Shown here one piece after another: positions 10,951 to 37,662 of a DNA stretch of 64,000 nt. Within the stretch, counting starts at the first letter, position 1. Each line of letters begins with the position of its first letter. The notes under the pieces were generated by a model. That model searched no databases. It was not told the DNA's origin and saw nothing but the letters and a program-made list of their open reading frames with translations. This stretch comes from an uncultured virus (IMG/VR IMGVR_UViG_3300025840_000026) (lineage: Duplodnaviria; Heunggongvirae; Uroviricota; Caudoviricetes), in IMG/VR virus record IMGVR_UViG_3300025840_000026; one strand, 5' to 3'. The position numbers and the translations under genes are program-made.

Positions 10951-10953
10951 GTG

Positions 10954-21047: not shown

Positions 21048-22304
21048 ATGACAGATATATACGTAAATACTGGAACAACCTTTCAACAACCTTATAATGC
21101 TCGCCAACCTGCAATTGGTAGGGTTCCTGCGAACTCACAATTAACAGCTAGGCAACCTGTAAATGCACAAACACCATTTACCTATCAGAATAGGTCACCG
21201 TTCACTTATAGAAACCCTGTAAGTGGTCAACAACCTTATATTGCTGATGCTCAGCAACCATATCCGTATATTGCTAATGCACAGCAACCCTATATTGCGA
21301 ATAGTCAAACACCATTTACTTATCAGAACAGACAACCTGCAATAGCACAACAACCTTATATTGCTAATGCTCAACAACCATACATTGCTAATGGACAAAC
21401 TCCATTTACCTATCAAAACAGATACCCTGCTAATGCACAAACACCATATATTGCAAATGCAAGACAACCTGCTACCTACCAAGCAAGGTCTCCATTTACA
21501 TATAGAAATCCTTATATTGCAAATGCTCAACAACCCTATATTGCAAATGCTAGACAACCTTCTATTGCAAATGCACAAACACCGTTTATCTATCAGGCTG
21601 CCTATCAAGCACAGGGAAATTATCGAGTTCCTTTCACTTATCAAGTTTCAGTCCCAGCAATAGGAACAGCTCCTGCTAATGGAACACAGCCTGGTGCAAA
21701 TATAACGGTAACTGAAACAGTTTCAAATTCCACAACAGGCATGTCTTTGTGGTTGTATAAAAGCACACAAAATGCCCCACCAAGTGTGTTTGCTAATTTT
21801 ATAATTTATATAAAACTTAATTTTACCTCTACAACTGCTGTAACTATGTCAGCAAAATTTACAACTGGGCCATATAGTAACAGGTCTCTACCCTCATGGG
21901 CTTCCTCTTGGGGGACTTATTATGTTATGTGGTATCTGAGTGTTAGTTCAACACCTGATACTTTTCAACATGAAACTTCTACATCGTATATGATAGAAGA
22001 CAATGGGGGAAACCAGTATGTGGCAACTAATATAGGCACCAATAGTGATGTTACTTACTCAATTAATGGCACTTCAACAAATTATACTTGGCCAACAACC
22101 TCATATCTTGGAACTTATGGATATCAAATTAATATGACAATGGAGCAAGAAGGTTATGGTGGGGGAACAGCCACTTTTACCCATGGTCATACTTTCAGAA
22201 TGAATAAATCAGGGTTTCCTACATATACAGGCCCTAGTGTTGATACTGATAATGAGATAATAATGCTAAATTCTGGTGGTGGAACACCGCCTCCACCTGT
22301 TTAG
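21048..22304 (+). CDS. Pro/Tyr/Gln repeat protein A1 with a C-terminal globular domain
   Basis: aa 13-198 are 24 xxP-led units (QQPYIANA, QTPFTYQN, RSPFTY...), followed by a ~200-aa non-repetitive domain; ends GGGTPPPPV. Confidence 0.8.
   Translation: MTDIYVNTGTTFQQPYNARQPAIGRVPANSQLTARQPVNAQTPFTYQNRSPFTYRNPVSGQQPYIADAQQPYPYIANAQQPYIANSQTPFTYQNRQPAIAQQPYIANAQQPYIANGQTPFTYQNRYPANAQTPYIANARQPATYQARSPFTYRNPYIANAQQPYIANARQPSIANAQTPFIYQAAYQAQGNYRVPFTYQVSVPAIGTAPANGTQPGANITVTETVSNSTTGMSLWLYKSTQNAPPSVFANFIIYIKLNFTSTTAVTMSAKFTTGPYSNRSLPSWASSWGTYYVMWYLSVSSTPDTFQHETSTSYMIEDNGGNQYVATNIGTNSDVTYSINGTSTNYTWPTTSYLGTYGYQINMTMEQEGYGGGTATFTHGHTFRMNKSGFPTYTGPSVDTDNEIIMLNSGGGTPPPPV
21084..21641 (+). repeat. Coding repeat array of A1 (24 units, 186 aa)
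   Basis: Units parsed by hand from the translation. Confidence 0.85.
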
Positions 22305-22316: not shown

Positions 22317-23087
22317 ATGGCAATTTGGACAGGCAACCCTACACCATATACGTTTCAACAACCGTATCCGTATATTGCACAGCAACCAGCACATGCAAGA
22401 CAACCTGCAACTTATCCATTTATTGGATATGCTCCTGCTAGTGCAAGACAACCTTCTACTTATCATTTAAGAACACCGTTTACATATCATGCAAGGTCAC
22501 CGTTTACGTATCATAATAGGTATCCTGCTAATGCCCAACAACCGTATATAGCTAATAGTCAGACACCGTTTACCTACCATTCAAGACAACCTTCTACTTA
22601 TCAGGTTCCATATATTGCAAATGCAAGACAACCTTTTACGTATCATGCAAGGTCACCGTTTACGTATCATAATAGGTCTTCAATAGATTATCAGGTTCCT
22701 TATATTGCAAATGCAAGACAACCGTCTACCTATCATGCAAGGTCACCGTTCACTTATCAGGCAACTGGTAGAACACCGTTTACCTATCAAGCAAGGTCAC
22801 CGTTTACCTATAGAAACCCTGTAAATGCACAGCAACCTTATATTGCAAACGCTAGACAACCCTCTACGTATCAAGTTGTATATCAAGTTCCTACCATTTA
22901 TGCAACTCCGTATATCTATACTGTTCCTTATATTGCAACAAGACCCATTGGGCCTCTTGCAAAAGTCAAGGGTGTTTTTGTAAATGATAGTGGAACTTTA
23001 AGGAAGTTGGATGAAGTTTATGTAAATGACAGTGGAACTGCAAGAAAAATTCATCAATCAGTTCCAACTGCACAGTATCAAGAATAA
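22317..23087 (+). CDS. Pro/Tyr/Gln repeat protein B1 (mirror partner of A1)
   Basis: AGGAG RBS; aa 22-207 repeat array; C-terminus carries 2 x V(F/Y)VNDSGT. Confidence 0.8.
   Translation: MAIWTGNPTPYTFQQPYPYIAQQPAHARQPATYPFIGYAPASARQPSTYHLRTPFTYHARSPFTYHNRYPANAQQPYIANSQTPFTYHSRQPSTYQVPYIANARQPFTYHARSPFTYHNRSSIDYQVPYIANARQPSTYHARSPFTYQATGRTPFTYQARSPFTYRNPVNAQQPYIANARQPSTYQVVYQVPTIYATPYIYTVPYIATRPIGPLAKVKGVFVNDSGTLRKLDEVYVNDSGTARKIHQSVPTAQYQE
22380..22937 (+). repeat. Coding repeat array of B1 (24 units, 186 aa)
   Basis: Units parsed by hand; 21+186+49 = 256 aa, matching the ORF length. Confidence 0.85.
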
Positions 23088-23442: not shown

Positions 23443-23661
23443 ATGTCAGGAAATATTAAAGCAAGAGTTTTACAAACAAACACTATTCGTGCAAAACAGG
23501 TTGCAATTGGTAACTCAGCAACTAATGTAAACTTGTCTGCAAAATCTATCAATGAACTTGCAGATGTTAATGTGGTTGAAACAGATGATGGACTTCTTTC
23601 TTATGATGCAGCTACGGATAAGTGGGTTACAAAAACTGTTTTAGATGGTGGAACATTCTAA
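23443..23661 (+). CDS. Small fibre-associated protein
   Basis: INELADVN...DGLLSYDAATDKW motif; C-terminal LDGGTF. Confidence 0.55.
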   Translation: MSGNIKARVLQTNTIRAKQVAIGNSATNVNLSAKSINELADVNVVETDDGLLSYDAATDKWVTKTVLDGGTF

Positions 23662-23664
23662 TCA

Positions 23665-24567
23665 GTGAGTCCTACTTTATGGTCATGTGATGAGTGGTCA
23701 CCCCTAAAAGAAATCATTATTGGTTCACTCAAGGGTCACGAACAACTCAAAAAATATTCTTACTACATTAAAGATATTTCTATAATAAGAGATATCTTAG
23801 ATGAAGCACAAGAAGGGTTAGATACCTTTCAATCTATTTTAGAAAAACTTAACATAAAGGTTTACAGACCACATGGTTTCTGTTATAATGTAAGAGACTG
23901 TGCTGTAGTCATAGAAGATACAATTCTAGAATCTTCGATGAGATATAAAGAAGAATACGGTTATCTTGAAACATTAAAACCTATTTTTGAAGAAAAGGTT
24001 TCAGAGGGTGCAAAATTAATTACTGCACCAAAACCTACATGGAGACCTTGGGTAAATCCAAACGAACCTATTTTTGATGCAGCTAACATATGTCGATTAG
24101 GTAAGGACATATTAATCAGTATAAATGAAACTGCAAATGAACATGGAAGAGATTGGGTCTTTAAAACATTCAATCATTTAAATCACCATCATATAGTTCA
24201 AAAAGAAAGAATATCACACATTGACACTACCTTTGTTCCAATATCTAACGATACAGTTATGATAAATCAGGAAAGAGTAAAAGAGATACCATCCGTATTT
24301 AAAGATTGGAAACATATCTTTATCAATATTGAGGACATGAATAAGGAAAAACCACCTATTGTGACGACAAGATGTGCATCGGCATTTATTGGAATGAATA
24401 CCCTTTCTATAGATAATAATACTGTATGTGTCAATGAAAGGGAAGTAAAATTAATAGAAAAATTAGAAAGACATAACTTTAATTGCATACCTATACCCCT
24501 CAAACAAACTAGAACTCTATCAGGTGGACTGCATTGTTGCACTTTAGATTTACTTAGAACATCTTAA
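23665..24567 (+). CDS. Amidinotransferase (pentein superfamily, glycine/inosamine-phosphate amidinotransferase-like)
   Basis: EWSPLKEIIIG; YNVRD; FDAAN (Asp); HIDTT (His); LSGGLHCCTLDL (Cys): catalytic triad motifs intact. Confidence 0.85.
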   Translation: MSPTLWSCDEWSPLKEIIIGSLKGHEQLKKYSYYIKDISIIRDILDEAQEGLDTFQSILEKLNIKVYRPHGFCYNVRDCAVVIEDTILESSMRYKEEYGYLETLKPIFEEKVSEGAKLITAPKPTWRPWVNPNEPIFDAANICRLGKDILISINETANEHGRDWVFKTFNHLNHHHIVQKERISHIDTTFVPISNDTVMINQERVKEIPSVFKDWKHIFINIEDMNKEKPPIVTTRCASAFIGMNTLSIDNNTVCVNEREVKLIEKLERHNFNCIPIPLKQTRTLSGGLHCCTLDLLRTS

Positions 24568-24570
24568 TGT

Positions 24571-24578
24571 TATAAATA
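24571..24578 (+). promoter_or_regulatory. Late promoter TATAAATA followed by a long leader
   Basis: Exact consensus about 135 nt upstream of the 24713 ATG. Confidence 0.7.
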
Positions 24579-24712
24579 TTAGTATCAAATCAAGGTGTCA
24601 TTCAGTGAGACACGACCCACATAGTGAGTGGAGAGTATATAATGTATCTTTCTCGGAAAGTGAAGAGAAAAAATCTTAATTAAGCTTTTTAAAAAATTTC
24701 AAGGAGAAATAA

Positions 24713-26245
24713 ATGGCTACAGTAATTCAAATTAAAAGGTCGACTGGTTTATCCGCTCCAACGACTTCTGACTTATCAGAAGGAGAATTGGCGTATGTCC
24801 AAGACCGTGCAAACAGTGGTGCTTCGGCAAAATTGTTTATTGAATCTGTTGATTCTGATAACTCTACTCCATTAATACACGCAATCGGTGGTAAATACTT
24901 CACCGATATGTTGAGTGGTTCATCTGCAACACCTGCTAACTTTAAAGTTGGTAACGGTGCTACATCAGGTGGTTCTATTCAGTTGATGGAAGATTCAGAC
25001 AACGGTGTTCACTCTGTAGGTTTGAAAGCTCCTGACTCAGTTGCTGCTGATCTTACTTTTGTTCTACCAGGCTCAGACGGTAGTGCAAACCAAGTATTAG
25101 CAACAGACGGTTCAGGTAACCTTTCATTCTTATCAACAACTTCAACACTTGCTGGTGCAACAGACTCAGATATCTCTGCTCCTTCATCAGGACAAGTTCT
25201 TGTTCATGATGGTTCAGATTCATTTGACAACGTAAGTATCTCAGGTGACGCAACACTTGCTTCAGATGGTTCTCTAACAATTTCTGCTGGTGCAGTTGAG
25301 AACTCAATGTTAGCAGGTTCAATCTCATATGATAAGATTGACTTCTTAATTGACGAAGACAACATGGCATCTGATTCAGATGTTAAAGTTCCTTCTCAAC
25401 AGTCAGTTAAAGCATATGTTGATTCACAATTAACAGCACAAGATGTTGACTTCGCTGGTGACAGTGGAACAGGTGCAGTTGATTTAGACTCACAATCATT
25501 GACTATTGCAGGAACAACTAACGAAATCGTTACTTCTGCTTCAGGTCAAACTTTAACAGTTGGTCTTCCTACTAATGTCACAACTCAAGGTAACTTGACA
25601 GTTGGTGGATATCTTGCAGGGCCTGCTTCCTTCACAATCGACCCAGCTGCAGTTGGTGACGATACAGGAACAGTTATCATTGCTGGTAACCTACAAGTAG
25701 ACGGAACAACAACAACAATCAATTCAACAACAGTTGCAATTGATGACTTAAACTTCTCAATAGCTTCAGACGCTGCTGATTCAGCTGGTGCCAACGGTGC
25801 TGGTATTACAATCGGTGGTGCAGGTGCAACCTTCACATATACCCATGCAGACACTTCATGGAATATGAACAAGTCATTGAACATCACAGGTGGTTTATCA
25901 CTAAGTAGTTCAATTACTGAGATTGATGGTGCAGCTCCAACTGCTGGACAACTATTAATTGGTAATGGTTCTAATGGAGACATGGAACTTGCTACTTTAA
26001 CTGCTGGTGAAGGACTTGACGTAACTAACGCTGACGGTGCAATCACATTATCAGCTGAAGATGCTACTGCTAGTAATAAAGGTATTGCTTCATTCTCAGG
26101 TTCATACTTCACTGTAACTTCAGGGGATGTTGCTATCAACAATGCTACAACATCTGCAAAAGGTATTGCAAGCTTTGATTCATCTAACTTCACAGTAAGT
26201 TCAGGTGCTGTCTCTGTTTCAGCTATAGACGGCGGAACATTTTAA
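24713..26245 (+). CDS. Tail fibre-like structural protein
   Basis: MATVIQIKRS...LSEGELAY N-terminus; DEDNMASDS...SQQSVKAYVDSQ; GNLQVDGTTTTINST; C-terminal IDGGTF. Confidence 0.7.
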   Translation: MATVIQIKRSTGLSAPTTSDLSEGELAYVQDRANSGASAKLFIESVDSDNSTPLIHAIGGKYFTDMLSGSSATPANFKVGNGATSGGSIQLMEDSDNGVHSVGLKAPDSVAADLTFVLPGSDGSANQVLATDGSGNLSFLSTTSTLAGATDSDISAPSSGQVLVHDGSDSFDNVSISGDATLASDGSLTISAGAVENSMLAGSISYDKIDFLIDEDNMASDSDVKVPSQQSVKAYVDSQLTAQDVDFAGDSGTGAVDLDSQSLTIAGTTNEIVTSASGQTLTVGLPTNVTTQGNLTVGGYLAGPASFTIDPAAVGDDTGTVIIAGNLQVDGTTTTINSTTVAIDDLNFSIASDAADSAGANGAGITIGGAGATFTYTHADTSWNMNKSLNITGGLSLSSSITEIDGAAPTAGQLLIGNGSNGDMELATLTAGEGLDVTNADGAITLSAEDATASNKGIASFSGSYFTVTSGDVAINNATTSAKGIASFDSSNFTVSSGAVSVSAIDGGTF

Positions 26246-26272
26246 TAACACTTAAGTCTATAGGAGAAGCTC

Positions 26273-27100
26273 ATGGCAACAGTAATACAATTTAAAAGAA
26301 GTTCCACTCAAGGTGCAACACCTACTACAGGTGACTTGTCTTTGGGGGAACTTGCTGTCAATACCTATTCAGGTAGATTCTACACTGAAAAGAACGATGG
26401 TAGTGCAGCTGTTGTAGAGGTTGGTTCTAATCCATCAACCTTAACTGTGAATGATGCATTTTCCTTTCCTACAAGTGACGGTTCCTCAAATCAGATTTTA
26501 AAAACTGATGGTTCAGGAACTTTGAGTTGGTCAGACCAACCTTCATCAGGTGTAAAAACCTACACTTATACTATTACAACTACAACTACTTCTATTAGTG
26601 GTTCAGATGATAATAGTGATACTCTTGTATATACCTCAGGGTATGAGCAAGTGTATATCAATGGTGTGAAGTTGGTTGGTGGTGGTGCAGACTATACTGC
26701 AACCAATTCTTCCACAATCACTTTAACGGAAAACGCATTAAGTGGTGATGTTGTTGAAGTTATTGCAATCACAAGTGCAGCTAATCTTGTTCAAGGTTAC
26801 TTCACTGAGAGTTCATTTTCAACTACATCAAGTGATCAAATATTATCTGCAAATGCATTAGCAAATAAAGCAGTTAAATATGTGATTTCCGCCACTCACG
26901 CATCAACAGGCACTCACGCAGCTGAAGTTTTATTGGTGAACAATGGTAGTAGTGCATACTTTGTGCAATACGGTGATGTTTATTCAGCATCATCGTTGTT
27001 TACATTGAATGCAGATGTTTCAGGTGGTAATGCTAGATTACTAGTTACTCCTGCAAACACAGATACTACAATCGATACATTCCAAATCAGGTTATCATAA
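26273..27100 (+). CDS. Tail fibre-associated structural protein
   Basis: MATVIQFKRS...LSLGELAVN; VYINGVKL...DYTA; C-terminal domain shared with the next two ORFs. Confidence 0.65.
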   Translation: MATVIQFKRSSTQGATPTTGDLSLGELAVNTYSGRFYTEKNDGSAAVVEVGSNPSTLTVNDAFSFPTSDGSSNQILKTDGSGTLSWSDQPSSGVKTYTYTITTTTTSISGSDDNSDTLVYTSGYEQVYINGVKLVGGGADYTATNSSTITLTENALSGDVVEVIAITSAANLVQGYFTESSFSTTSSDQILSANALANKAVKYVISATHASTGTHAAEVLLVNNGSSAYFVQYGDVYSASSLFTLNADVSGGNARLLVTPANTDTTIDTFQIRLS

Positions 27101-27113
27101 GGAGATATGAATA

Positions 27114-27524
27114 ATGGCTAAAACGAAAGCATTTGAAATAGCAGAACTTATTCGTCATCTTCGATATGATGCTGATAACGATGTTATTACAACAGAAAAA
27201 GCTACTCGGGATAAAAACAAAAAGAGAGGTAATGCAACTAGAACATCCACAGATGAATTTGCATTAGACACTTTCACAAAAACTGATTACAGAGCTGCAA
27301 GATATATTGTAGCAATGTCAGATGGTGCAAAGTTTCACTCTACAGAAGTTGTTTTGGTTCATGATGGTAGTTCTGTAACAATGACACAATATGGAACACT
27401 TAAATCTCATTCATTGGCATCCTTTGATTCAGATATTAGTGGTTCAGATGTTAGATTGTTAGTAACACCAGCGTCTACCTCATCAACAGTTATCAAATAT
27501 GATAGAACAGTTGTAGAAGCATAA
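27114..27524 (+). CDS. Small structural protein (paralogous C-terminal domain)
   Basis: YRAARYIV...HSTEVVLVHDGS...TQYG...VRLLVTPAS. Confidence 0.6.
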   Translation: MAKTKAFEIAELIRHLRYDADNDVITTEKATRDKNKKRGNATRTSTDEFALDTFTKTDYRAARYIVAMSDGAKFHSTEVVLVHDGSSVTMTQYGTLKSHSLASFDSDISGSDVRLLVTPASTSSTVIKYDRTVVEA

Positions 27525-27547
27525 CGATAAGTTTTGACAAAAACTTT

Positions 27548-27576
27548 GAAAGGGGACTTTATGTCCCCTTTCTTTT
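27548..27576 (+). terminator. Rho-independent terminator
   Basis: GAAAGGGGAC-TTTAT-GTCCCCTTTC then TTTT. Confidence 0.85.
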
Positions 27577-27589
27577 ACCTATAAAAAAC

Positions 27590-27597
27590 TATAAATA
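27590..27597 (+). promoter_or_regulatory. Late promoter TATAAATA
   Basis: Exact consensus just after the terminator. Confidence 0.7.
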
Positions 27598-27626
27598 GTA
27601 TTTGTAATTAGAGAGATAATTAGAGT

Positions 27627-28367
27627 ATGGCAACCAAAAAGAATTTAATAGCTGATATTGGAATAGAGACACACGGTAGTTTGACTGTAGATGGTAATGC
27701 AACCATCACAGGAAACCTAACAGTAAATGGAACCAGTAATACAGTGGAATCCACAACCACATCGGTTGAGGATAACCTTATTGAGCTTGCAAATAATAAC
27801 ACTAGTTCTGATACACTTGATATTGGTATATACGGTAACTATGACGATGGACTAGCAGATGGGGCATCAGAGTATACAGGATTCTTTAGAGATGCAAGTG
27901 ATTCCACATGGAAACTATTTGATGGATTAGAAGTTGAGCCTGGTTCTACTGTTAATATTTCAGGGTCAGGATTTGCAAAAGCAGCTTTAGAAGTTGGTGA
28001 CTTATCATGCACAACCATTACTGCATCTGATTCACTTACTATTGACAGTTTAGTAGTAGATTCCTCAAGTGGTTCTACATTAGAAACTACAAGTGAGACA
28101 GATTTAGATTCTTGGGCAACTTCTACATATAGAAGTGCAAAATATGTTCTTCAAGCAACCGAAGGAACTAAATACCATACAACAGAAGTTATAGTTATAC
28201 ATGATGGAAGTGATGCATACTTCACACAATTCGGTGAAATTATCACAACTTCATCATTGTTTGAGGTTTCGACCTCAGTAGAAAGTGGAAGTGTAAAATT
28301 AAAAGTTACACCTGCTTCTGCAAATTCAACAGTTTTTAAATGGTCAAGAACTTTAATTAAAATTTAA
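27627..28367 (+). CDS. Tail fibre-associated structural protein
   Basis: GNLTVNGT...VEDNLIELA; GFFRDASDSTWKLF; C-terminal YRSAKYVLQ...TEVIVIHDGSDAYFTQFG domain. Confidence 0.65.
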   Translation: MATKKNLIADIGIETHGSLTVDGNATITGNLTVNGTSNTVESTTTSVEDNLIELANNNTSSDTLDIGIYGNYDDGLADGASEYTGFFRDASDSTWKLFDGLEVEPGSTVNISGSGFAKAALEVGDLSCTTITASDSLTIDSLVVDSSSGSTLETTSETDLDSWATSTYRSAKYVLQATEGTKYHTTEVIVIHDGSDAYFTQFGEIITTSSLFEVSTSVESGSVKLKVTPASANSTVFKWSRTLIKI

Positions 28368-28434
28368 TACCTCTTGACGATTAAGAAGTGATAAATAAAA
28401 GAGTTAAAACCACAATCGTTAGGACACACAAACT

Positions 28435-28695
28435 ATGGCAACACAAAATACCTTTGTTATAGAGTATGGATTGTCGGTTGGTTCCACTGAGGTCATCAAT
28501 TCGTCAGGTAAGTTGCAGGCAGCTGCAATCTCAGAGTTGGATACAGATAATCTCTCAGAAGGTTCCACGAATCAATACTTTACAAACACAAGAGCGAGAG
28601 GTGCAATATCACTTGCATCAGGTGAAAGTAACTTGAGTTACGACTCTTCAACTGGTAAAATATCGTTACCACAGGTTGATGGAGGCACATTATAA
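28435..28695 (+). CDS. Small fibre-associated protein
   Basis: N-terminus paralogous to the 28695 ORF (F.I..GL.VG.TEVI.SSG); LSEGSTNQYFTNTRAR; C-terminal VDGGTL. Confidence 0.6.
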   Translation: MATQNTFVIEYGLSVGSTEVINSSGKLQAAAISELDTDNLSEGSTNQYFTNTRARGAISLASGESNLSYDSSTGKISLPQVDGGTL

Positions 28696-31100
28696 TGACA
28701 GCTAAAAATTTCATAATCAAAAACGGTCTTACTGTTGGAACAACAGAAGTCATCACTAGTTCAGGTAGTATTACATCAGCTGCAGTAGGAGATGCTCTAA
28801 ACGAAGCAATTGCAGATAAGATTGGTGGTATTATTCAGGGTTCAGGTTCAACCACAGTAACCTATGATGATACAAACGATACTATCACCATTTCATCAAC
28901 TGGTAAGACAGAAGAAGAGATTCAAGATATCGTTGGTGCTCAGTTAGTAACCAACGGTTCACATACAAATATTACTGCATCTTACGATGATTCAGGAGAC
29001 GGTGCAGTTGACCTTTCTATCTCTGATACAGTTATCAGAGGAAAGATTAGTGCAGGTGGTGATTTAAGTTATGATAACAGCACAGGTGTTGTATCATTTA
29101 CAGAAAGAACAGATGCAGAAGTTAGAGGACTTATTAGTGCAAGTGGTGATTTAAGTTATGATAACAGCACTGGTGTAATTTCATTTACTAACGATGCTGG
29201 TGATATAGAATCAGTAATCGCTGGAACTGGTTTAACTGGTGGTGGAACTTCAGGTGATGTTACATTAAGCATTGACCTTAAAGATGAAGATAACATGGCT
29301 TCAGACTCTGCAACTCATGCCGCTTCACAGCAATCAATTAAAGCATACGTTGATTCACAAATAGCAAGTAAAGATAACACAGACGAAATTACAGAAGGTT
29401 CAACTAACTTATACTTTACAAATGCAAGAGCAGATGCTAGGATTACAGCGGCATTAATTGACGAAGATGACATGTCATCAGATAGTGCTACTAGAATCCC
29501 TTCACAACAAAGTGTTAAGGCATATGTTGATTCACAAGTTGATACAGTAGATGCATTAAGTGAACTAAGTGGTGATACTGATGATGTATCAGAAGGTTCG
29601 ACTAATTTATATTATACTGATGCAAGAGCCAGAGCGGCCATAAGTGCATCAGGAGATTTAAGTTATAACAGTTCAACAGGTGTTGTATCATACACAGAAC
29701 CTACAATGTATGCCGATTCAGATGCCAGAGGTGCAATCTCAGTCACAGATTCAGGTGGAGATGGTTCACTTGCATATAATTCATCAACAGGTGTAATTAC
29801 ATATACAGGCCCTAGTGCATCAGAAGTTCAAGCACATATTACTGCTGGAACTGGTGTGTCGGTTTCAAGTGGTCAAGTTAGTATTGGTCAGGCAGTAGGA
29901 ACTTCAGATTCACCCACATTTGCAGGTGTAACACTTACAGGTGCATCAACAGTTTCAGGACATGTTCTTCCAAGTGCAGATGTTACCTACGACTTAGGTT
30001 CAGCATCGTATCAATGGAGAGACGTATATGTCGGGCCAGGGTCACTTTATGTTAACGGACAAAAAGTATTAGAAGATAGTTCAGGAACAATCGTTGTTTC
30101 TGCTGATTCAGACCAAAACCTTCAAATGAAAACTGCTGGTAGTGGTGACATTGAGTTCAACCCATCAGGCACAGGTATCATTCAAGCAAAAGGAACACTT
30201 CAAATGCTTGATGGTGAGTTAATCACCAACAGTGCTGGTAATGCAGTTGCATTCGGAAACAACATCAGTGTAGATCAAATTGCTTCTAGAAGTGCAGACA
30301 CAAACTTAGTATTGAGTGGTAACGGAACAGGTAATGTTACATTGAATGACGATGTTGTCATCTCAGGTTCATTGACAGTTTCAGGAACAACAACTACAGT
30401 TAACTCAGAGACAATCAATCTTGCAGATAACATTCTAAACCTAAACTCTGATTTTACATCAGGTTCACCTACACAGGATGCAGGTATAAGTGTTTCAAGA
30501 GGTGGTTCAACTGCAAAAACATTCTTATGGGATGAAACCAACGATAGATGGACAGTCGGTTCAGATAGCATGGTTGCAGGAACATTCATTGGTAATCTAA
30601 CAGGGGATGTCACAGGAGATGTTACAGGTAATGCTTCAACAGCAAGTGCTTGGGCAACTGCAAGAACACTAAGTTTAACAGGTGCAGTTACAGGTTCTGC
30701 TTCAGTAGATGGTTCAGGTAATGTTTCACTTGCTACAACAGCAACAAGTGACCCAACATTGACACTTGCAGGAGATGCTTCAGGTAGTGCAACATTTACA
30801 AATTTAGGTAACGCAACATTAACAGTTACAGTTGCAAACAATTCACATACACACACTGTATCAAATATTTCAGACTTGACTGTAACAGCAGCTGAGTTGA
30901 ACTTCATGGATAATGTAACATCTAATGTTCAAACTCAGTTGAATGCAAAATATGGTAGTGGTTCTAATGCAACACTAGGAACAATTACTACAAGTAATGC
31001 AAGTAATTCAGGTGGATATGTAAGAAATGTTTATCAATCTACATCAGCTCCTACTTCAGGTGATGGTGCAGTTGGTGATTTATGGATTCTCTACTCTTAA
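28695..31100 (+). CDS. Long tail fibre-like protein (module 2 shaft)
   Basis: Repeated ISAxGDLSYxxSTGV, DEDxMxSDSAT...SQQSxKAYVDSQ and EGSTNLYxTxARA motifs; C-terminal QSTSAPTSGDGAVGDLWILYS. Confidence 0.7.
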   Translation: MTAKNFIIKNGLTVGTTEVITSSGSITSAAVGDALNEAIADKIGGIIQGSGSTTVTYDDTNDTITISSTGKTEEEIQDIVGAQLVTNGSHTNITASYDDSGDGAVDLSISDTVIRGKISAGGDLSYDNSTGVVSFTERTDAEVRGLISASGDLSYDNSTGVISFTNDAGDIESVIAGTGLTGGGTSGDVTLSIDLKDEDNMASDSATHAASQQSIKAYVDSQIASKDNTDEITEGSTNLYFTNARADARITAALIDEDDMSSDSATRIPSQQSVKAYVDSQVDTVDALSELSGDTDDVSEGSTNLYYTDARARAAISASGDLSYNSSTGVVSYTEPTMYADSDARGAISVTDSGGDGSLAYNSSTGVITYTGPSASEVQAHITAGTGVSVSSGQVSIGQAVGTSDSPTFAGVTLTGASTVSGHVLPSADVTYDLGSASYQWRDVYVGPGSLYVNGQKVLEDSSGTIVVSADSDQNLQMKTAGSGDIEFNPSGTGIIQAKGTLQMLDGELITNSAGNAVAFGNNISVDQIASRSADTNLVLSGNGTGNVTLNDDVVISGSLTVSGTTTTVNSETINLADNILNLNSDFTSGSPTQDAGISVSRGGSTAKTFLWDETNDRWTVGSDSMVAGTFIGNLTGDVTGDVTGNASTASAWATARTLSLTGAVTGSASVDGSGNVSLATTATSDPTLTLAGDASGSATFTNLGNATLTVTVANNSHTHTVSNISDLTVTAAELNFMDNVTSNVQTQLNAKYGSGSNATLGTITTSNASNSGGYVRNVYQSTSAPTSGDGAVGDLWILYS

Positions 31101-31136
31101 TAAATAAGAGTAGATTTTTGAGGAATTAAAATATAA

Positions 31137-32204
31137 ATGGTTACTGGTAATCAGAAGGTAAAAACACCCGCAGGTTGGAATTCAACACAAGGTGCTTGGG
31201 TTAAGACACCTACAGCTTGGAAAGCAGTAGAACAAGTTTATGTAAAGACCCCTACTGGGTGGAATAATGCCTCAGGACAGGACAATGCACAACAACCGTA
31301 TCCATACATTGCAAATGCACAAACACCTTACATAGCAAATGCTCAGCAACCATATCCGTATATTGCAAATGCTCAGACACCATATATTGCAAATGCTCAG
31401 CAACCGTATCCATACATTGCAAATGCACAAACACCATATATTGCAAATGCACAACAACCGTATCCGTATATTGCAAATGCACAAACACCTTACATAGCAC
31501 AAGCAAGGCAACCTTCTACTTATCAAAATAGGTCACCATTTACCTATCAGTTGCCTTATATTGCTAATGCACAACAACCTTATATTGCACAAGCAAGGCA
31601 ACCTTCTACTTATCAGCATAGGAATCCATTTACATATAGGTTACCTTATATTGCAAATGGTCAACAACCTTATATTGCGAATGCAAGGCAACCTTCTACT
31701 TATCAAAATAGGTCACCATTTACATATAGGTTACCTGTTATTGCTAATGCACAACAACCTTATATTGCTAATGCAAGACAACCTTCTACTTATCAAAATA
31801 GGTCACCATTTACATACAGGGTTCCTTATATTGCTAATGCAAGACAACCGTTTACATACATAGCATCTTATAGGGTTCCTTATATTGCTAATGCAAGACA
31901 ACCGTTTACCTATAATGCAAGGTATCCTGCTAATGCAAGATATCCTGCAAACGGTCAAACACCGTTTACATATAACGCAAGGTATCCTGCTGGTTATCCT
32001 GCAAACTATCAAACACCGTTTACATATAACGCAAGGTATCCTGCTGGTTATCCTGCAAACTATCAAACACCGTTTACATATAACGCAAGGACGCCAGGAA
32101 CGTATCCGTATATAGCAAACTATTCTTACAGGTCACCTCGTTCATATTTCTATCCAGTTGGTGGCGGAACACCACCACCACTACCTGAAGGATTCGGTAA
32201 ATAG
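31137..32204 (+). CDS. Pro/Tyr/Gln/Arg repeat protein A2
   Basis: N-terminus has 3 x VKTPxxW; aa 52-331 are 34 xxP-led units; ends GGGTPPPLPEGFGK (51+280+24 = 355 aa). Confidence 0.8.
   Translation: MVTGNQKVKTPAGWNSTQGAWVKTPTAWKAVEQVYVKTPTGWNNASGQDNAQQPYPYIANAQTPYIANAQQPYPYIANAQTPYIANAQQPYPYIANAQTPYIANAQQPYPYIANAQTPYIAQARQPSTYQNRSPFTYQLPYIANAQQPYIAQARQPSTYQHRNPFTYRLPYIANGQQPYIANARQPSTYQNRSPFTYRLPVIANAQQPYIANARQPSTYQNRSPFTYRVPYIANARQPFTYIASYRVPYIANARQPFTYNARYPANARYPANGQTPFTYNARYPAGYPANYQTPFTYNARYPAGYPANYQTPFTYNARTPGTYPYIANYSYRSPRSYFYPVGGGTPPPLPEGFGK
31290..32129 (+). repeat. Coding repeat array of A2 (34 units, 280 aa)
   Basis: Includes 4 x 54-nt tandem copies and several 90-nt tandem blocks. 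Confidence 0.9.
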
Positions 32205-32227
32205 ATGATGAATAGGAGTAATAACTA

Positions 32228-33163
32228 ATGGCAGGTCAAATTCAAGGTTTTTATCAGTTACCAGTAATTGGGTCAGCCAGTGCTACAGGTAATTATCAAG
32301 TTCCTTATATTGCAAATGCAAGGCAACCTAATACCTATATTGCATCGTATCGTGTTCCGTATATTGCTAATGCAAGGCAACCTAACACCTATATTGCATC
32401 GTATCGTGTTCCGTATATTGCAAACGCAAGGCAACCGTTTACCTATAGAGTTCCATTTACCTATCGTGTTCCATACATTGCAAATGGTCAAAACCCATTT
32501 ACATATAATAATAGATACCCAGCTGGTTACCCTGCAAACGGTCAAACACCGTTTACCTATAATGCAAGGTATCCTGCTAATGCCCAACAACCTTATATAG
32601 CAAATGCACAATCACCATTTACTTATCAAGCAAGGTCACCATTTACGTATCATCATAGGTCACCAAGGAATGCTCAACAACCTTATATAGCAAATGCACA
32701 AACACCATTTACTTATCAAGCAAGGTCACCGTTTACGTATCATAATAGGTCACCAAGAAATGCACAGCAACCAGTTATAGCAAATGCACAAACACCGTTT
32801 ACGTATCATCATAGGTCACCGTTTACGTATCATAATAGGTCACCAAGGAATGCTCAACAACCTTATATAGCAAATGCACAAACACCGTTTACCTATCAAA
32901 ATAGACAACCTTCTACTTATGCAACACAAGGTAGAACACCGTTCACGTATCAAAACAGACAACCTTCTACATATGCAACACAAGGTCAAACACCGTTTAC
33001 CTATCAAAATAGACAACCTTCTACATATGCAAGACAAGGTAGAACACCGTTTACCTATCAAAACAGACAACCTTCTACATATGCAAGACAAGGTAGAACA
33101 CCTGTTATCCGTTGGGATGGTGTATTGTCACAACAATGGCCTGCAACACCTATATCTTCCTAG
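32228..33163 (+). CDS. Pro/Tyr/Gln/Arg repeat protein B2 (mirror partner of A2)
   Basis: AGGAG RBS; aa 10-289 are 34 units (9+280+22 = 311 aa). Confidence 0.8.
   Translation: MAGQIQGFYQLPVIGSASATGNYQVPYIANARQPNTYIASYRVPYIANARQPNTYIASYRVPYIANARQPFTYRVPFTYRVPYIANGQNPFTYNNRYPAGYPANGQTPFTYNARYPANAQQPYIANAQSPFTYQARSPFTYHHRSPRNAQQPYIANAQTPFTYQARSPFTYHNRSPRNAQQPVIANAQTPFTYHHRSPFTYHNRSPRNAQQPYIANAQTPFTYQNRQPSTYATQGRTPFTYQNRQPSTYATQGQTPFTYQNRQPSTYARQGRTPFTYQNRQPSTYARQGRTPVIRWDGVLSQQWPATPISS
32255..33094 (+). repeat. Coding repeat array of B2 (34 units, 280 aa)
   Basis: Units parsed by hand from the translation. Confidence 0.9.
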
Positions 33164-33202
33164 TGACTAAATACTAGTAAGTTTAACAATTCGGTTTATA
33201 TT

Positions 33203-34777
33203 ATGGAAAAACTTACATCTCTTGATCAGGTGAAAGAAAAATTAGTTTCTACTGATTGGGATAGCCTAAAAAATTATTATCAACTTCGTTCTGAAACTCC
33301 TTATTGGATAGGTTCCATTGACCTTAAAAGTTCATACAGTGAACAGAGTAGTTATGAAGTCATAAAATATATTTGGGATGAATTAATCCCGCCCCTAAAA
33401 CTTGTAAAGTGGGGGTCTTTTTTAGAACATAGAAAGAATAAAAAAATTCAAGAACTCCAAGGTCTAAAGTGGAACTCATCTATCTATTTAAAATACATTC
33501 ATCAATGTTATTCTTCTGCACCTGAGAAGTTAGCTGCTGGTTTTTTTGGGTTTGACATTGCAGATGAGAATGACCAATCTACTACCTTTAGTAGTATTCT
33601 TGATACACCTCTGAGTGAACAATCTGAAACTAACTTAGTTTCCATGTTCTACCATGCAGCTAAAGCACATTGGATTATGGATACCGTTCAAACAGAAGGT
33701 ATGCATCACCCTATTCAATGTGTATTATTCCCACAAGACGAAAGAAAAACACACATGAATATGTTTGTTCATCCAGGCTCTGTTAGGTCTTTAGTTGTAG
33801 AAGAAATGGATGACCCTGAATTTGACTTATTGGTTTGGGATGCATACGATTTTGTTGAAGGAGAGAAGTTTACCTTTGATGGTATTTTAGACTATTGGAA
33901 GGAAAGATTAACTAAGTTTGATAAAGAACACTTTAATGTATCTTTTACATTCCAAGGTGGTATATTAGAATTTGCAACAGACTTTGCAGGTGCAGAATTT
34001 AGACAAGAGGTATATCAATACTCAAAGAAAGTAAACTCCTTGATGAAAAGAAAACCCCTCAACATCTATATTGGAGTAGATTCTACACACAATAAAATTG
34101 AGCATATAACAAAATATAGTATCGAGAAATCGATTGAAAAATCTTTTTCTAGTGGTTTTGATACACAACTTGCAAGATTCAATCCTGAGATTAAATACTT
34201 AGATATTGCAAACATTCCTGAATATACTAGGTCTTATGCAAATCAAAACACAGAGTTTACCTATAGTAGATTTTTGATTCCTTATCTAGAAAATTATGAA
34301 GGATTCAGTATGTTCTTAGACGATGATTTCTTTTTTGTTGAAACACCACTTCGTATGTTCTATTATATGAGACCCGATGATGCAGTTGCATGTATCCAGT
34401 ATCGTCAATATGAACATGTAAAAACTAAATTTAATGGTGCAGTTAACATTGATTATCCGTGTAAACTTTGGTCTAGTATGATGTTCTTTAATAATGGTCA
34501 TGAAGATTGTAAGAAGTTAACACCTGAGGTAGTTAACACGTGGACTGGGAAACAACTACACCAATTTGAATGGACAGATAAAATAAGTAAGATTCCTGAG
34601 AAATATATATTTACAGAAGGATATGATGACCCTGTAGAAAAGTGGCACTATACGGGTATTCACTACACTAGAGGTGGCCCATGGATTGATAACATGGACA
34701 CTTCAATCATAGACAACTTAGATGTCTATGAAAAAATTAAAAATTCCTACTTTACAAATAAAAGTAATGTGGTATAA
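33203..34777 (+). CDS. Two-domain protein: unknown N-terminal domain plus GT-A glycosyltransferase
   Basis: C-terminal half: IYIGVDS; TEFTYSRFLIPYL; MFLDDDF (DxD); KLWSSMMFFN; LHQFEW; HYTRGGPW. Confidence 0.75.
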   Translation: MEKLTSLDQVKEKLVSTDWDSLKNYYQLRSETPYWIGSIDLKSSYSEQSSYEVIKYIWDELIPPLKLVKWGSFLEHRKNKKIQELQGLKWNSSIYLKYIHQCYSSAPEKLAAGFFGFDIADENDQSTTFSSILDTPLSEQSETNLVSMFYHAAKAHWIMDTVQTEGMHHPIQCVLFPQDERKTHMNMFVHPGSVRSLVVEEMDDPEFDLLVWDAYDFVEGEKFTFDGILDYWKERLTKFDKEHFNVSFTFQGGILEFATDFAGAEFRQEVYQYSKKVNSLMKRKPLNIYIGVDSTHNKIEHITKYSIEKSIEKSFSSGFDTQLARFNPEIKYLDIANIPEYTRSYANQNTEFTYSRFLIPYLENYEGFSMFLDDDFFFVETPLRMFYYMRPDDAVACIQYRQYEHVKTKFNGAVNIDYPCKLWSSMMFFNNGHEDCKKLTPEVVNTWTGKQLHQFEWTDKISKIPEKYIFTEGYDDPVEKWHYTGIHYTRGGPWIDNMDTSIIDNLDVYEKIKNSYFTNKSNVV

Positions 34778-34778
34778 T
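34751..34778 (+). promoter_or_regulatory. Putative sigma70-type promoter (TTTACA-N16-TATAAT, with extended -10 TG)
   Basis: TTTACA at 34751-34756 and TGGTATAAT at 34770-34778. Confidence 0.5.
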
Positions 34779-34798
34779 AATAAAAGAGGTATAACTTT

Positions 34799-35362
34799 AT
34801 GATGAATGCACTAATTTACGATGAAAAATCAAATCTTTTTGTAAGAAAACCAAATGGTTTACAATACGATTTTAATAATGTTGACAGACCAGCTTTAGGA
34901 TTTAACTTTGATGTTTTGGTATATGATGATATCCAAGTTAAGATTGAAAACTGGGATGATAGCAAACCTTTTCATGAACAAGAACAAGTTCAATTGACTG
35001 ATGCAGAAAAGGACATGGTTGAGATTTATATTGAAAACTCTGAACCACCCATAGGTCATACATTAAATGGTCAATACATGAATATTTTACGAGATAAGTT
35101 TGATGAACTTTCAAATGAAGCTGTAGGTATTGTTGGGTTTAATTGTCCTGTTGATGCAATGATTGCTGGAAGAGAAGGTTCTAATCATCCTCATAGGTCA
35201 AATGCAAGAAGATATTTGGAATGGTATGATTCAACTGCTAATGTAGTTTTAGATGTATCTAGAATTATAGATTCAACAAGAGAAGACCATTTAGAAGACA
35301 TTAATTCTTATTTAAACCAAATTCCTAGATTTGCACCTGCCCCTGAACAACCAAGGGACTAA
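34799..35362 (+). CDS. Hypothetical protein, possibly tail-fibre-assembly chaperone-like
   Basis: GFNCPVDAMIAGREGSNHPHRSNARRYLEWYD loosely resembles the C-termini of fibre-assembly proteins; weak call. Confidence 0.4.
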   Translation: MMNALIYDEKSNLFVRKPNGLQYDFNNVDRPALGFNFDVLVYDDIQVKIENWDDSKPFHEQEQVQLTDAEKDMVEIYIENSEPPIGHTLNGQYMNILRDKFDELSNEAVGIVGFNCPVDAMIAGREGSNHPHRSNARRYLEWYDSTANVVLDVSRIIDSTREDHLEDINSYLNQIPRFAPAPEQPRD

Positions 35363-35371
35363 AGGTGTTAA

Positions 35372-36079
35372 ATGGAAATTGTTCATTTAGATAAACCTTT
35401 TAAGATAGAATCCTGTCCTTTAGACAAAATATATGTTTTAGATAATTGGTTAGACTCAAGTCTACATCATCATTTTGATGAACAGATAAGAAATGCAACT
35501 TATTGGGGTAAAACCAATAATGTAAATGCAGATAATAAGACAGGTCTTCCACATCACTCATTGTGGGGAGCTTCATTTTTTCGTAATGACTTTACACTAG
35601 ACAGTGATGTAAATCCAATAGACACAGTTTTTACAAAATATTTAATTAGAAGATTAGAATTTGAATTTAAATTCAAGTGGGTAAGATTTCAGTATGCTGG
35701 GACAAATTCTCAGACTATGGGACAACATGGGACAACTCATGTAGATTGTCAAGATGAAGATGAATGGAATCTATCCTTTCTATATTATACTAATGTGTTT
35801 TGGAATCCACAATGGGGTGGGACTTTAAGATTCTATGATTCTCCTCAACAAGGATTAGATGGAAGAGACGACCACATTAAAAATCATCAGATTGCAGAAG
35901 TGGAGTTCAAACCAAACAGATTATTAATGTTTGATGGTAGAATACCACACGGTGCAGATGCACCAACAGAAAAAGCAAAATATATGGATAGAAGGTCACT
36001 TGTAATAAGAGGTGATGAAATTAGATTAACAGATACAAAAGAGTTTTTTGATGCCAACGATAGAATTTACCGCATATAG
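35372..36079 (+). CDS. 2OG-Fe(II) oxygenase (prolyl-hydroxylase-like)
   Basis: HVD...WNPQWGGTLRF...KPNRLLMFDGRIPHG...RRSLV: HxD/H/R signature. Confidence 0.8.
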   Translation: MEIVHLDKPFKIESCPLDKIYVLDNWLDSSLHHHFDEQIRNATYWGKTNNVNADNKTGLPHHSLWGASFFRNDFTLDSDVNPIDTVFTKYLIRRLEFEFKFKWVRFQYAGTNSQTMGQHGTTHVDCQDEDEWNLSFLYYTNVFWNPQWGGTLRFYDSPQQGLDGRDDHIKNHQIAEVEFKPNRLLMFDGRIPHGADAPTEKAKYMDRRSLVIRGDEIRLTDTKEFFDANDRIYRI

Positions 36080-36968
36080 TGAAGAAACCTTAAGGAACTT
36101 TAAACCAGTTCTTGCAAAGGAAATTATTCCTGACTGGTGGAAACGAATGAGAATCATGGATTTTGCAAATGGTAGCACTAATCATTCTATTCGTTCATGT
36201 CCTGCAATGGATGATTGGTTAAAGAGTGGATGGATTATTGTTTCTACAAGAGACATGTTAGTATTGTGTGGTAATGACAGGGATGATGATGATGCAAGTT
36301 GTTTTCAAACTATAGACTTAGAACAAAAAGGTTATCAAAGTGTTGCAAGTTCACGTTCACATCCAGTTGCACAGTTTCATAATGTCTTTGAATATTTAAA
36401 AAGTGGAGAGAATCCAACCAATATTAGAGATGCATTTAAGATGAGAGCTCCATGGAATATTGTAACCCCTGAAGGTTATTCAGTATTCTACTTAGACCCT
36501 TTTCTATTTCAAAATGAACACTTTGCAGTCTGGCAGGGTATTATAGACAGTGATAAGTTTAATAAAAATATGGACAACTCACAGATTATTTTTTATCCTA
36601 AAGTTAATCATAGTTTTGTTATACCGAAAGGAACACCTATTCTACAAATTATTCCATTCAAAAGAGATGAGTGGGTTGCATCTTATCAGTTTAGAGACGT
36701 AGATGATTATCAAAAGAATTTATCTTTTCACTCTGCATCTTATGGAAACAAAGAACGTGATGAAAGTAAAATGACAATGGAAGAAGCTAATAGACTTCAT
36801 CCTGAGTTTCAGTCTGATAAATACAGAGCAGGGGCATATCGTTCTCTAGGATACTGGAAACCAAAGGGTAAATTTTTCAAAGAAGAATCCCCCCCACCTG
36901 AATGTCCCTTTCATAAAAAAGAAGAAAGTGTAGAGACACAATTGGAGTTCGATTTCGATGGCAGTTAG
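36048..36968 (+). CDS. Conserved hypothetical protein that often accompanies phage 2OG oxygenases
   Basis: SIRSCPAMDD; PWNIVTPEGYS; GIIDSD; IPKGTPILQIIPFKRD. Likely start MPTIEF at 36051. Confidence 0.55.
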   Translation: MMPTIEFTAYSEETLRNFKPVLAKEIIPDWWKRMRIMDFANGSTNHSIRSCPAMDDWLKSGWIIVSTRDMLVLCGNDRDDDDASCFQTIDLEQKGYQSVASSRSHPVAQFHNVFEYLKSGENPTNIRDAFKMRAPWNIVTPEGYSVFYLDPFLFQNEHFAVWQGIIDSDKFNKNMDNSQIIFYPKVNHSFVIPKGTPILQIIPFKRDEWVASYQFRDVDDYQKNLSFHSASYGNKERDESKMTMEEANRLHPEFQSDKYRAGAYRSLGYWKPKGKFFKEESPPPECPFHKKEESVETQLEFDFDGS

Positions 36969-37662
36969 ATTATTATTCCCAACAGTGGTTTTTCATAGAA
37001 ATCTTCTTTGTCCAAATTTAGAGGATAAAGGATTTAATGAAGACTATCTTCTTCTCTTAAAGAGAACTATGGATGAAATGAGAAGACAAGACCCTGAAGG
37101 TAGAAAAGTTTCTAATGCATATACTGGATGGCAATCTAATGACGGTTGTGAATCTAGTCCTGCCTTTAAAAAACTCATGAGGTGCATTACACAGACTTTT
37201 TATGATGAAGTATTTCCTTTTCATGGTCTAACAGATAGAGATTATAAAGTAGAAATTGGTAACTCATGGGCTAACATCAATGACCCTAAAGCATGGAATA
37301 AACCTCACCTACATAACGGATGTTGGTATAGTGGAGTGTTCTATATTCATGCAGAAGGTGACGAAGGTGATATAGTGTTTATCGATAAAGACCCAAAGGT
37401 AGTTTCTGATTACCCACATTCACCACGTGTAAATGAAAATTGGTCTTTTAGTCCTACTAAGGGAGAGTTGATTTTATTCCCATCTGCATTAATGCATATG
37501 GTAGAACCTAACTTCACTGATAGGGATAGATACAGTATTTCTTTCAATATAAACATGGTAAATTTACCTAGTGGGAATAGACATGGTGTGGTAGAAAACT
37601 TCAATCCTGATGAATTTGTCTATGATTTAGACCCACAAGGAAGACTCATATATCCTAAATAG
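36958..37662 (+). CDS. Putative 2OG-Fe(II) oxygenase (TIGR02466-like)
   Basis: LLFPT; GWQS; SWANIN...NKPHLH...SGVFY; GELILFPSALMHMVEPN...RYSISFN. Confidence 0.8.
   Translation: MAVRLLFPTVVFHRNLLCPNLEDKGFNEDYLLLLKRTMDEMRRQDPEGRKVSNAYTGWQSNDGCESSPAFKKLMRCITQTFYDEVFPFHGLTDRDYKVEIGNSWANINDPKAWNKPHLHNGCWYSGVFYIHAEGDEGDIVFIDKDPKVVSDYPHSPRVNENWSFSPTKGELILFPSALMHMVEPNFTDRDRYSISFNINMVNLPSGNRHGVVENFNPDEFVYDLDPQGRLIYPK

Follow-up and report, generated by a model that had tools for sequence, protein, structure and literature searches.

A mirrored pair of proline-punctuated repeat proteins in the fibre region of an uncultured T4-like phage, and a proposed two-chain fibre shaft

The stretch of DNA analysed here (the window) comprises 64,000 nucleotides of an uncultured Caudoviricetes virus (IMG/VR record IMGVR_UViG_3300025840_000026) and encodes two adjoining repeat proteins, A2 (chain 1; 355 amino acids (aa), 31137..32204, + strand) and B2 (chain 2; 311 aa, 32228..33163, + strand). 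The repeat arrays of these two proteins are mirror images of each other: when A2 is read from the N to the C terminus and B2 from the C to the N terminus, the successive units are equal in length and opposite in class. This mirror was confirmed to be real and far beyond chance, and it is kept, with covariation of the two genes, among related phages. A likely explanation is that a single fibre shaft of the virion is built from A2 and B2 as its two chains, lying antiparallel and in fixed register as extended beta strands. A broader proposal, for and against which we see about equal grounds, is that such a pair is a protein counterpart of the nucleic-acid duplex. In this view, a position-by-position code would determine, for spans of 165 to 533 residues, which chains pair and in what register; one virion would harbour two or more orthogonal duplexes; and any tandem duplication in one gene would have to be answered by a complementary one at the mirrored site of its partner.

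The mirror between A2 and B2

The A2 array occupies residues 54-334 (31296..32138, + strand) and contains 34 Pro-punctuated units of 6, 8, 10 or 14 residues, and the B2 array (residues 12-292; 32261..33103, + strand) contains 34 units that form the reversed, class-complemented image of the A2 array. The units were obtained by a parameter-free rule, in which each chain was cut at every Pro, pieces shorter than 6 residues were merged with the next piece, and units starting with P-x-T-Y were assigned to class T. By this rule, each protein was parsed into 34 units over exactly 280 residues from Pro to Pro. The mirror had been described in an initial annotation made from the sequence alone, and it was reproduced in full: unit lengths were equal at 34/34 positions, and classes were opposite at 34/34, including the 14-residue unit that the annotation had left unclassified. 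In the permutation test proposed there, the observed score of 34 was not attained by any of 200000 shuffles of the B2 units, whose maximum was 20. Other shifts and orientations scored at most 17 (antiparallel, shifted), 12 (parallel, complementary) and 14 (parallel, same class).

The same relationship could be detected at the residue level, without any parsing into units. A single gapless antiparallel alignment of A2 and B2 contained 35 Pro-Pro coincidences. Parallel offsets yielded 22 at best, and each chain aligned with a reversed copy of itself yielded 26 (A2) or 21 (B2). All Pro-Pro spacings within the two arrays are even (2, 4, 6, 8, 10, 14 and 16 residues). The composition reported earlier was also found again, with no Asp, Glu or Lys in either 280-residue array; at 34 of the 35 junctions, one or both chains have an Arg two residues ahead of Pro. 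The A2 array carries a net charge of +20 and the B2 array one of +27, and the 562 array residues of the two proteins include 7 His and 14 Gly.

At the DNA level, the two genes are not reverse complements, as had been stated: the best minus-strand match by blastn covered 10 nucleotides (nt) with an E value of 1.5, and by the same measure A2 and B2 do not form a sense-antisense peptide pair, in which one gene is the reverse complement of its partner's. Only plus/plus similarity was found between them (up to 74% over 294 nt), which comes from the common unit types. Tandem blocks of DNA are arranged in mirrored order in the two genes (54 nt x4.3, 90 nt x4.3 and 54 nt x3.4 in A2; 54 nt x2.7, 90 nt x3.6 and 54 nt x4.1 in B2), which implies evolution by matched tandem duplications. 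These features also bear on the idea that the mirror is a structurally meaningless by-product of DNA evolution, arising from inverted duplication, antisense coding or gene conversion. The shared unit types and the same-orientation identity of up to 74% would fit paralogues that exchange sequence; however, exchange between genes on the same strand would yield a parallel rather than a mirrored likeness, reverse-complement similarity is absent by blastn, and CCN codons for Pro cannot give Pro on the opposite strand, yet the Pro spacing is mirrored. Since the mirror is moreover kept over at least 36 different lengths in related pairs, such an origin is hardly credible. We know of no mutational mechanism that gives mirrored protein strings from genes on the same strand.

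Covariation in related gene pairs

By scanning viral contigs, 240 relatives of A2 were found and the best 80 loci were analysed, nearly all of which carry an A-type gene followed by a B-type gene. After loci with cut genes (L001, L003, L005, L021, L030, L031 and L062) and exact duplicates were dropped, 53 distinct complete adjacent pairs were obtained, in which B proteins range from 200 to 559 aa. With one gapless antiparallel alignment for each of these pairs, 1920 of the 2164 B prolines lie opposite an A proline, compared with 1277 at the best parallel offsets. The cognate B shows the highest antiparallel Pro coincidence for its A in 50/53 pairs, with ties only among near-identical sister loci. 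Moreover, the lengths of the A and B arrays, defined for each protein separately, are correlated with r = 0.96 (37 distinct lengths for A, 36 for B), the A array usually being 4 to 8 residues longer than the B array. An apparent exception, L063, proved to be an artefact of start calling with ATG only, and with a GTG start 56 of its 60 B prolines coincide.

All database relatives are metagenomic proteins, and no member of the family was detected when HTVC008M, Melnitz and Mosig, which are cultured relatives, were searched with a profile. Natural A-B fusions were sought among proteins of 546 to 2000 aa, and none of the 50 matches had both an A head and a B tail, although the search was crowded and the evidence is weak. 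At one locus (L145, from position 2495 onward), the gene order is B then A, with a B of 190 aa that has the RWDG tail and an A of 405 aa with a VKTP head plus a Hint domain; there, 23 coincidences for 26 B prolines show that the mirror persists. Relatives were also seen on contigs binned into metagenome-assembled genomes of Verrucomicrobiales, Sphingobacteriales, Rhodobacterales and Flavobacteriales (L158-L161; two of the contigs are 111 and 121 kb long), which are most likely phage contigs swept into these bins.

Two-residue phase, register and pairing code

Within the aligned spans (165 to 533 residues) of 55 pairs, not a single Pro occupies the odd phase on either chain. Phase counts were pooled over 38 pairs, namely A2/B2 of the window and 37 representative loci, with near-identical sisters and L063 left out. 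The even:odd counts are 2959:0 for Pro and 891:30 for Ile, and 4:2483 for Tyr, 2:971 for Phe, 256:2100 for Ala and 5:389 for Val; His is rare, with 12:121 in the family among about 20000 residues. Alternation of this kind over hundreds of residues implies an extended strand with two distinct faces, and the extended strands proposed in the initial annotation thus gain support from a strict two-residue rule that holds over up to 533 residues. A collagen-like or polyproline-II triple helix was also considered and rejected: its three-residue period is excluded by the Pro count of 2959:0 and by the even spacings, and Gly makes up 14/562 of the array residues.

The register between the chains was addressed by cross-chain mutual information over 40 pairs. 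The information peaks at 1.63 bits in a register shifted by two residues from Pro opposite Pro (register +2), compared with 1.25 bits at the Pro-Pro shift of 0 and at +4, and with 1.02 and 1.13 bits at the odd shifts beside +2. In register +2, Pro lies opposite Arg/Gln in 96% of cases and Arg opposite Pro in 85%, Ala opposite Tyr/Phe in 86%, Phe opposite Ala/Gly in 88%, and Asn opposite Thr in 65%. In A2/B2 themselves, 74 of 101 aromatic positions are opposite Ala/Gly/Ser in this register and no aromatic residue is opposite another; the corresponding values in the Pro-Pro register are 46 of 89 and 12. The earlier proposal that bulky residues face small ones is borne out by these counts. On the other hand, its placement of the prolines directly in register is probably off by two residues, and the physical register would then be shifted by two residues from Pro-Pro.

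A log-odds pairing matrix was learnt from 36 loci, with the window, its 81%-identical relative L002 and L063 left out. When this matrix was applied to the window, A2-B2 scored 454 bits in the antiparallel and 18 bits in the parallel orientation. The window contains a second mirror pair, A1 (418 aa; 21048..22304, + strand), in which an array of the A2 kind is followed by a non-repeat C-terminal domain of ~200 aa, and its mirror partner B1 (256 aa; 22317..23087, + strand), which aligns with A1 antiparallel and without gaps with 24 Pro coincidences. A1-B1 scored 270 bits in the antiparallel orientation, and the wrong partners A2-B1 and A1-B2 scored 96 and 113 bits, respectively. In leave-one-out tests with the learnt matrix, the cognate partner ranked first in 36/36 cases. 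Thus, the code transfers between phages and distinguishes the two pairs of one virion. The initial annotation had held that unit strings varying independently in homologous pairs would speak against antiparallel in-register pairing; instead, array lengths covary (r = 0.96) and the cognate partner ranks first in 50/53 pairs by Pro coincidence and in 36/36 by the matrix, which supports such pairing.

Pairs of the A1/B1 type form a smaller set, in which the cognate partner ranked first in 8 of 13 distinct pairs. The motifs at the proximal ends of A1 and B1 differ from those of A2 and B2: A1 starts with ..IYVNTGTTF, and the C-terminus of B1 carries two VxVNDSGTxRK repeats, which match phrog_13729. 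For the C-terminal domain of A1 (214 aa, 5-row alignment), AlphaFold2 gave a model with a mean predicted local distance difference test (pLDDT) value of 36, which was too poor for use.

A proposed fibre shaft and its alternatives

If A2 and B2 form a fibre shaft, they would lie side by side in it, running in opposite directions as fully extended beta strands. The even-phase face of each strand would present Pro, Ile, Arg, Thr, Asn and Gln, and the other face Tyr, Phe, Ala, Val, Gly and Ser. Residues facing each other in an antiparallel ribbon of two strands form hydrogen-bonded and non-hydrogen-bonded pairs in turn, and this sheet geometry suggests that the prolines would sit at non-hydrogen-bonded positions, where the missing NH would be costless. 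Partner and register would be set by a code that matches Ala/Gly to Tyr/Phe and Asn/Gln to Thr, and in which each Pro meets the Arg/Gln located two positions ahead of a Pro on the other chain. The length of the shaft may evolve by tandem duplication of super-units of 18 or 30 residues, each matched at the mirrored place in the partner gene. For fully extended chains, the length would be ~90 nm by arithmetic (280 x 0.33 nm). The virion end would consist of the A N-terminal domain and the B C-terminal tail, and the outward end of the A C-terminus and the B N-terminus.

The number of A-B pairs per fibre would determine the form of the shaft. A single pair would amount to an isolated ribbon, and three pairs packed about a common core of Tyr/Phe/Ala would make a needle of six strands, resembling the tip of T4 gp37. 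Three A-B ribbons with a common core, three strands leading out and three back, are at least as likely as a single ribbon. The isolated two-chain ribbon favoured by the initial annotation, with one A2 and one B2, Pro opposite Pro and both faces free-standing in solvent, is the simplest model that explains the mirror; moreover, Pro at alternate positions only fits exposed ribbon edges, and a 1:1 ratio is suggested by the adjoining or overlapping genes. It is nevertheless doubtful, because the whole Tyr/Phe/Ala/Val face would be exposed to solvent over 90 nm, and the Pro-Pro register that it assumes is less informative across the chains than +2. In addition, an aromatic residue is never opposite another and nearly always opposite Ala/Gly/Ser, which is what a narrow shared core would demand.

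A role in a fibre is supported by the position of the pair in the fibre region, between the baseplate and VrlC-like genes and the neck genes, and by the synteny of a fibre gene, A and B (37 to 38 of 38 loci). The pair might also be an antiparallel duplex that is no tail fibre, such as a whisker of the head or neck, a polyanion-binding coat, or a cationic protein that is internal or ejected, which would agree with arrays that are strongly cationic and lack acidic residues, and with an A2 that itself has no distal globular domain. This is unlikely in view of the conserved place of the pair among the fibre genes of the host-recognition region and of the variable distal domains of relatives, which are followed by a small open reading frame (ORF) in tail-fibre fashion. 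The absence of the family from HTVC008M, Melnitz and Mosig further points to an accessory rather than a core part of the virion.

Another alternative is that A and B do not touch and instead lie in opposite directions along a third periodic partner that imposes the spacing, for example the upstream trimeric fibre protein. A fibre-like gene does always precede the pair, and the mirror alone is silent on what the chains contact; however, the upstream protein (about 490 to 940 aa) shows no visible relation to array length, and no repeat of matching period was seen in it. As this arrangement would also leave the small-large and Asn-Thr complementarity between A and B without a reason, it appears quite improbable, and a shaft in which the two chains contact each other directly remains the preferred reading.

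Several observations weigh against this shaft and its code. At L039, B lacks two 18-residue repeats and A is identical to that of L038, which may be either an uncompensated deletion or natural mismatch, or a repeat collapsed in assembly; a real mismatch would provide a measure of the slack that the duplex tolerates. The cognate B of L077 ranked second, 12/53 pairs have fewer than 85% of their B prolines coincident without gaps, and all counts over related pairs derive from common ancestry and are not independent events. Among pairs of the A1/B1 type, 5/13 fail the gapless test, and two of these five, when realigned with gaps, gave 129 and 136 bits antiparallel versus 25 and 26 parallel at the cost of one-residue bulges. 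The maximum of mutual information is an indirect guide to physical register and contact, and the learnt code partly re-measures proline register and spacing. Finally, the net charge of the shaft, about +47 with no acidic residue, is unusual for a free-standing rod.

Comparison with known systems

The tip of the T4 long tail fibre, gp37 (PDB 2XGF), was reportedly described by Bartual et al. in 2010 as a six-stranded antiparallel needle. In the gp37 trimer, as passages of one paper describe (PMC6957217), the chain returns to its starting domain, and Gly921, which meets Phe970 of another subunit, must stay small. The putative A2/B2 shaft resembles this needle in being a long, thin phage fibre part whose strands run out and back along the axis, and in its small-opposite-large packing (Gly921/Phe970 of gp37 in the same passages of PMC6957217; Ala/Gly-aromatic here). 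However, the out and back strands of gp37 belong to a hairpin of one chain in a homotrimer, whereas two separate gene products are involved here. The gp37 core holds seven His-bound iron atoms; in contrast, His makes up 7/562 of the A2 and B2 array residues, and the His-X-His arrangement was not found in them. The gp37 needle is also short, unlike the spans of up to 533 residues with prolines punctuating both chains, and neither A2 nor the B-family profile shows a sequence relationship to any PDB chain.

A triple-stranded beta-helix is formed by the C-terminus of T4 gp5, a parallel homotrimer with an eight-residue VxGxxxxx repeat and strands across the axis. An eight-residue sequence period and a place in a T4-type virion spike or fibre are common to both systems, but the A2 and B2 arrays mix units of 6, 8, 10 and 14 residues in an order that is mirrored between two chains. 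A helix of the gp5 type was rejected on account of these mixed and mirrored unit lengths and of the scores of 18 bits parallel versus 454 bits antiparallel. Antiparallel heterodimeric coiled coils are alpha-helical and follow a seven-residue code. They likewise consist of two different chains whose register and orientation are set by a periodic code, with several orthogonal pairs per cell; unlike them, the present arrays have a period of two and proline marks every 6 to 10 residues, pointing to beta strands. Single-layer beta-sheet rods made of single chains folded back are found in the G5-E repeats of staphylococcal SasG/Aap and in OspA. They, too, are long and thin, contain Pro and lack a conventional globular core, but, unlike A and B, they show neither a two-gene mirror nor covariation of partner lengths.

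A published description of such a two-chain design was not found in open-access full text and bioRxiv, the sources searched. If the proposed pairing is true, the sequence would tell which partner a chain takes, and in which orientation and register, as is the case for coiled coils and nucleic acids; this would be a first among natural heteromeric beta-strand assemblies. The pairing would also account for a gene pair, widespread but unnamed, that abundant T4-like phages of aquatic habitats carry in their host-recognition region, and would offer a natural, readable rule set for beta-strand rods of programmable length and specificity. The related pairs, with at least 36 different lengths, provide natural experiments in the matched expansion and contraction of long repeat arrays in two genes, and the code is simple enough for direct testing with designed partners or one-sided insertions.

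Similarity and structure searches

The arrays have no match among Pfam or PHROG families. When the B-family profile and the A2 sequence were compared with all PDB chains, nothing meaningful was found, the best match being an esterase with an E value of 0.78. A phage collection that may lack records close to the window gave nothing useful by blastn of the whole region, by tblastn of A2, which returned only low-complexity matches to Pseudomonas phages (E 3e-4), or with the N-terminal 53 aa of A2 as query. Prediction of the A2 + B2 complex from 39-row alignments, run without controls, gave a score of 0.00 in both runs with an uncertain fold of the partner itself, and speaks neither for nor against binding. 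The ESM Atlas model of B2 has a pLDDT of 0.47, and its look-alikes are other disordered-looking repeat proteins.

Ends, distal domains and polarity

The N-terminal domain of A2 (residues 1-53; 31137..31295, + strand) contains three VKTPxxW-like motifs. No other part of the A family is as well conserved, as invariant columns in a 39-row alignment show, and in 51/53 related pairs the array begins at residue 54-59. A2 ends with a short C-terminal tail (..YFYPVGGGTPPPLPEGFGK) and the stop codon (32139..32204, + strand), and B2 with the conserved C-terminal tail VIRWDGxLSQQWPATPxSS and the stop codon (33104..33163, + strand). The 53 N-terminal residues of A and the C-terminal tail of B (..RWDGxLSQQWPATP..), both of which are the most conserved parts, fall at the same end of the antiparallel alignment, and the other end, with the A C-terminus and the B N-terminus, is variable. 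From this pattern we infer that the conserved end would be virion-proximal and the variable end distal.

The C-termini of 38 representative A proteins fall into several types. A short Gly-rich tail like that of A2 is found in 16, a Hint/intein-like domain that starts with GG..CF and ends with (V/A)HN in 13, and a non-Hint domain of ~150 aa in 8; one is atypical. The Hint/intein-like tails (L026, L032, L040, L046, L051, L052, L056, L059, L064, L066, L075, L077 and L080) begin right past the Gly run, and the (V/A)HN is followed by 3 to 7 more residues. Pfam matches to the Hint clan were obtained for 5/12 relatives scanned, two of them above the curated cut-offs, namely L059 (PF01079, 31.1 against a cut-off of 29.7) and L075 (PF14623, 27.5 against a cut-off of 27). 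The A2 of the window, which ends in ..GGGTPPPLPEGFGK, has no Hint domain by Pfam match or by the signature of Cys after the Gly run and His-Asn. In relatives, the Hint-like domain hints at an A protein that cleaves itself, or whose C-terminus is transferred, at the distal end, where the B N-terminus would also lie.

Tail-fibre chaperone genes usually follow the genes for receptor-binding tips. In all 7 loci examined with the ~150-aa non-Hint type, an extra ORF of ~95 aa is present between A and B, and one locus (L008) has two. These loci are L004 (2406-2690), L008 (5815-6340), L009, L014, L020, L025 and L041. By analogy with tail fibres, the ~95-aa ORFs are candidate assembly chaperones for a receptor-binding tip. 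The A of L004 (of the A2/B2 type) and the A of L132 (of the A1/B1 type) have, by eye, nearly the same C-terminal domain of ~150 aa (..YTYPDPAIWGPYPV...VTLALF), and a distal tip thus seems to have been exchanged between the two fibre types.

Genomic context and occurrence

The window represents the structural region of a T4-like myovirus. Baseplate genes (1-12474) are followed by a VrlC-like DUF4815 protein of 2242 aa (12523-19251) and a run of fibre-like genes (19458-33163), and the genes for neck proteins, terminase, sheath, portal and major capsid protein lie downstream of the fibre run. The capsid protein shares 67% identity with its counterparts in Methylophilales phage Melnitz and Pelagibacter phage HTVC008M. 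The fibre run contains four Pro/Tyr/Gln/Ala-rich repeat ORFs, which make up two adjoining pairs on the same strand, A1-B1 and A2-B2. In pelagimyophages, a hypervariable 'host recognition cluster' between VrlC and gp14 has been described (PMC7029224), and the A2/B2 region corresponds to this cluster as delimited in the relevant passages of that paper, which make no mention of repeat pairs of the A/B kind.

A2 is preceded by an AGGA-type ribosome site, and B2, which has an AGGAG ribosome site, starts 23 nt past the A2 stop; in most loci the intergenic gap between A and B is 0-40 nt or the genes overlap. Directly 5' of A2 lies the gene for a fibre-like protein of 801 aa (28695..31100, + strand), a homologue of which precedes A in 37/38 representative loci. 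B2 is followed by the gene for a 524-aa protein akin to nucleotide-sugar glycosyltransferases (33203..34777, + strand), a homologue of which is found after B in 38/38 loci, and a 2-oxoglutarate (2OG)-Fe(II) oxygenase gene is present downstream in all 27 loci whose flank reaches that far. The conserved block past B2 (33203-37662) encodes, in order, the glycosyltransferase-like protein, a 187-aa unknown protein, a 2OG-Fe(II) oxygenase (PF13640), a 306-aa unknown protein and a second 2OG-Fe(II) oxygenase (PF13759). Judging from this synteny alone, hydroxylation or glycosylation of the Pro/Thr/Tyr-rich fibre by the glycosyltransferase-like and oxygenase products is conceivable.

The nearest site 5' of A2/B2 with the sequence TATAAATA, the T4-type late-promoter consensus, is at 27590..27597 (+ strand), and the next is at 37934. 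The two genes may belong to one late transcription unit, as the motifs at 27590 and 37934 bracket the block.

Sequences near-identical to positions 31000-33300 of the window were seen in at least 23 public runs of 21 studies, 10 of which runs are filed as metatranscriptomes. The initial annotation had assumed a marine setting; the habitat labels of these runs are instead freshwater, aquatic or estuary metagenome. Near-identical pieces cover the A2/B2 region in four runs, two of them filed as RNA and two probably DNA, and each run has a contig that spans the A2-B2 junction; these contigs are broken inside the repeats, and RNA libraries can contain DNA, so that the runs provide no evidence of transcription.

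Two ORFs were observed just past the second pair. An ORF of 110 aa right after B1 (23106-23438) matches families of L-shaped tail-fibre assembly or LtfC-like proteins (phrog_3304, E 7e-24; PF23926 weakly). An ORF of 300 aa (23665-24567) weakly matches the arginine deiminase/amidinotransferase fold (PF02274, 27.6 bits against a cut-off of 22.8), and, as a guess, it might be linked to modification of Arg, given that the arrays are rich in Arg and free of Lys.

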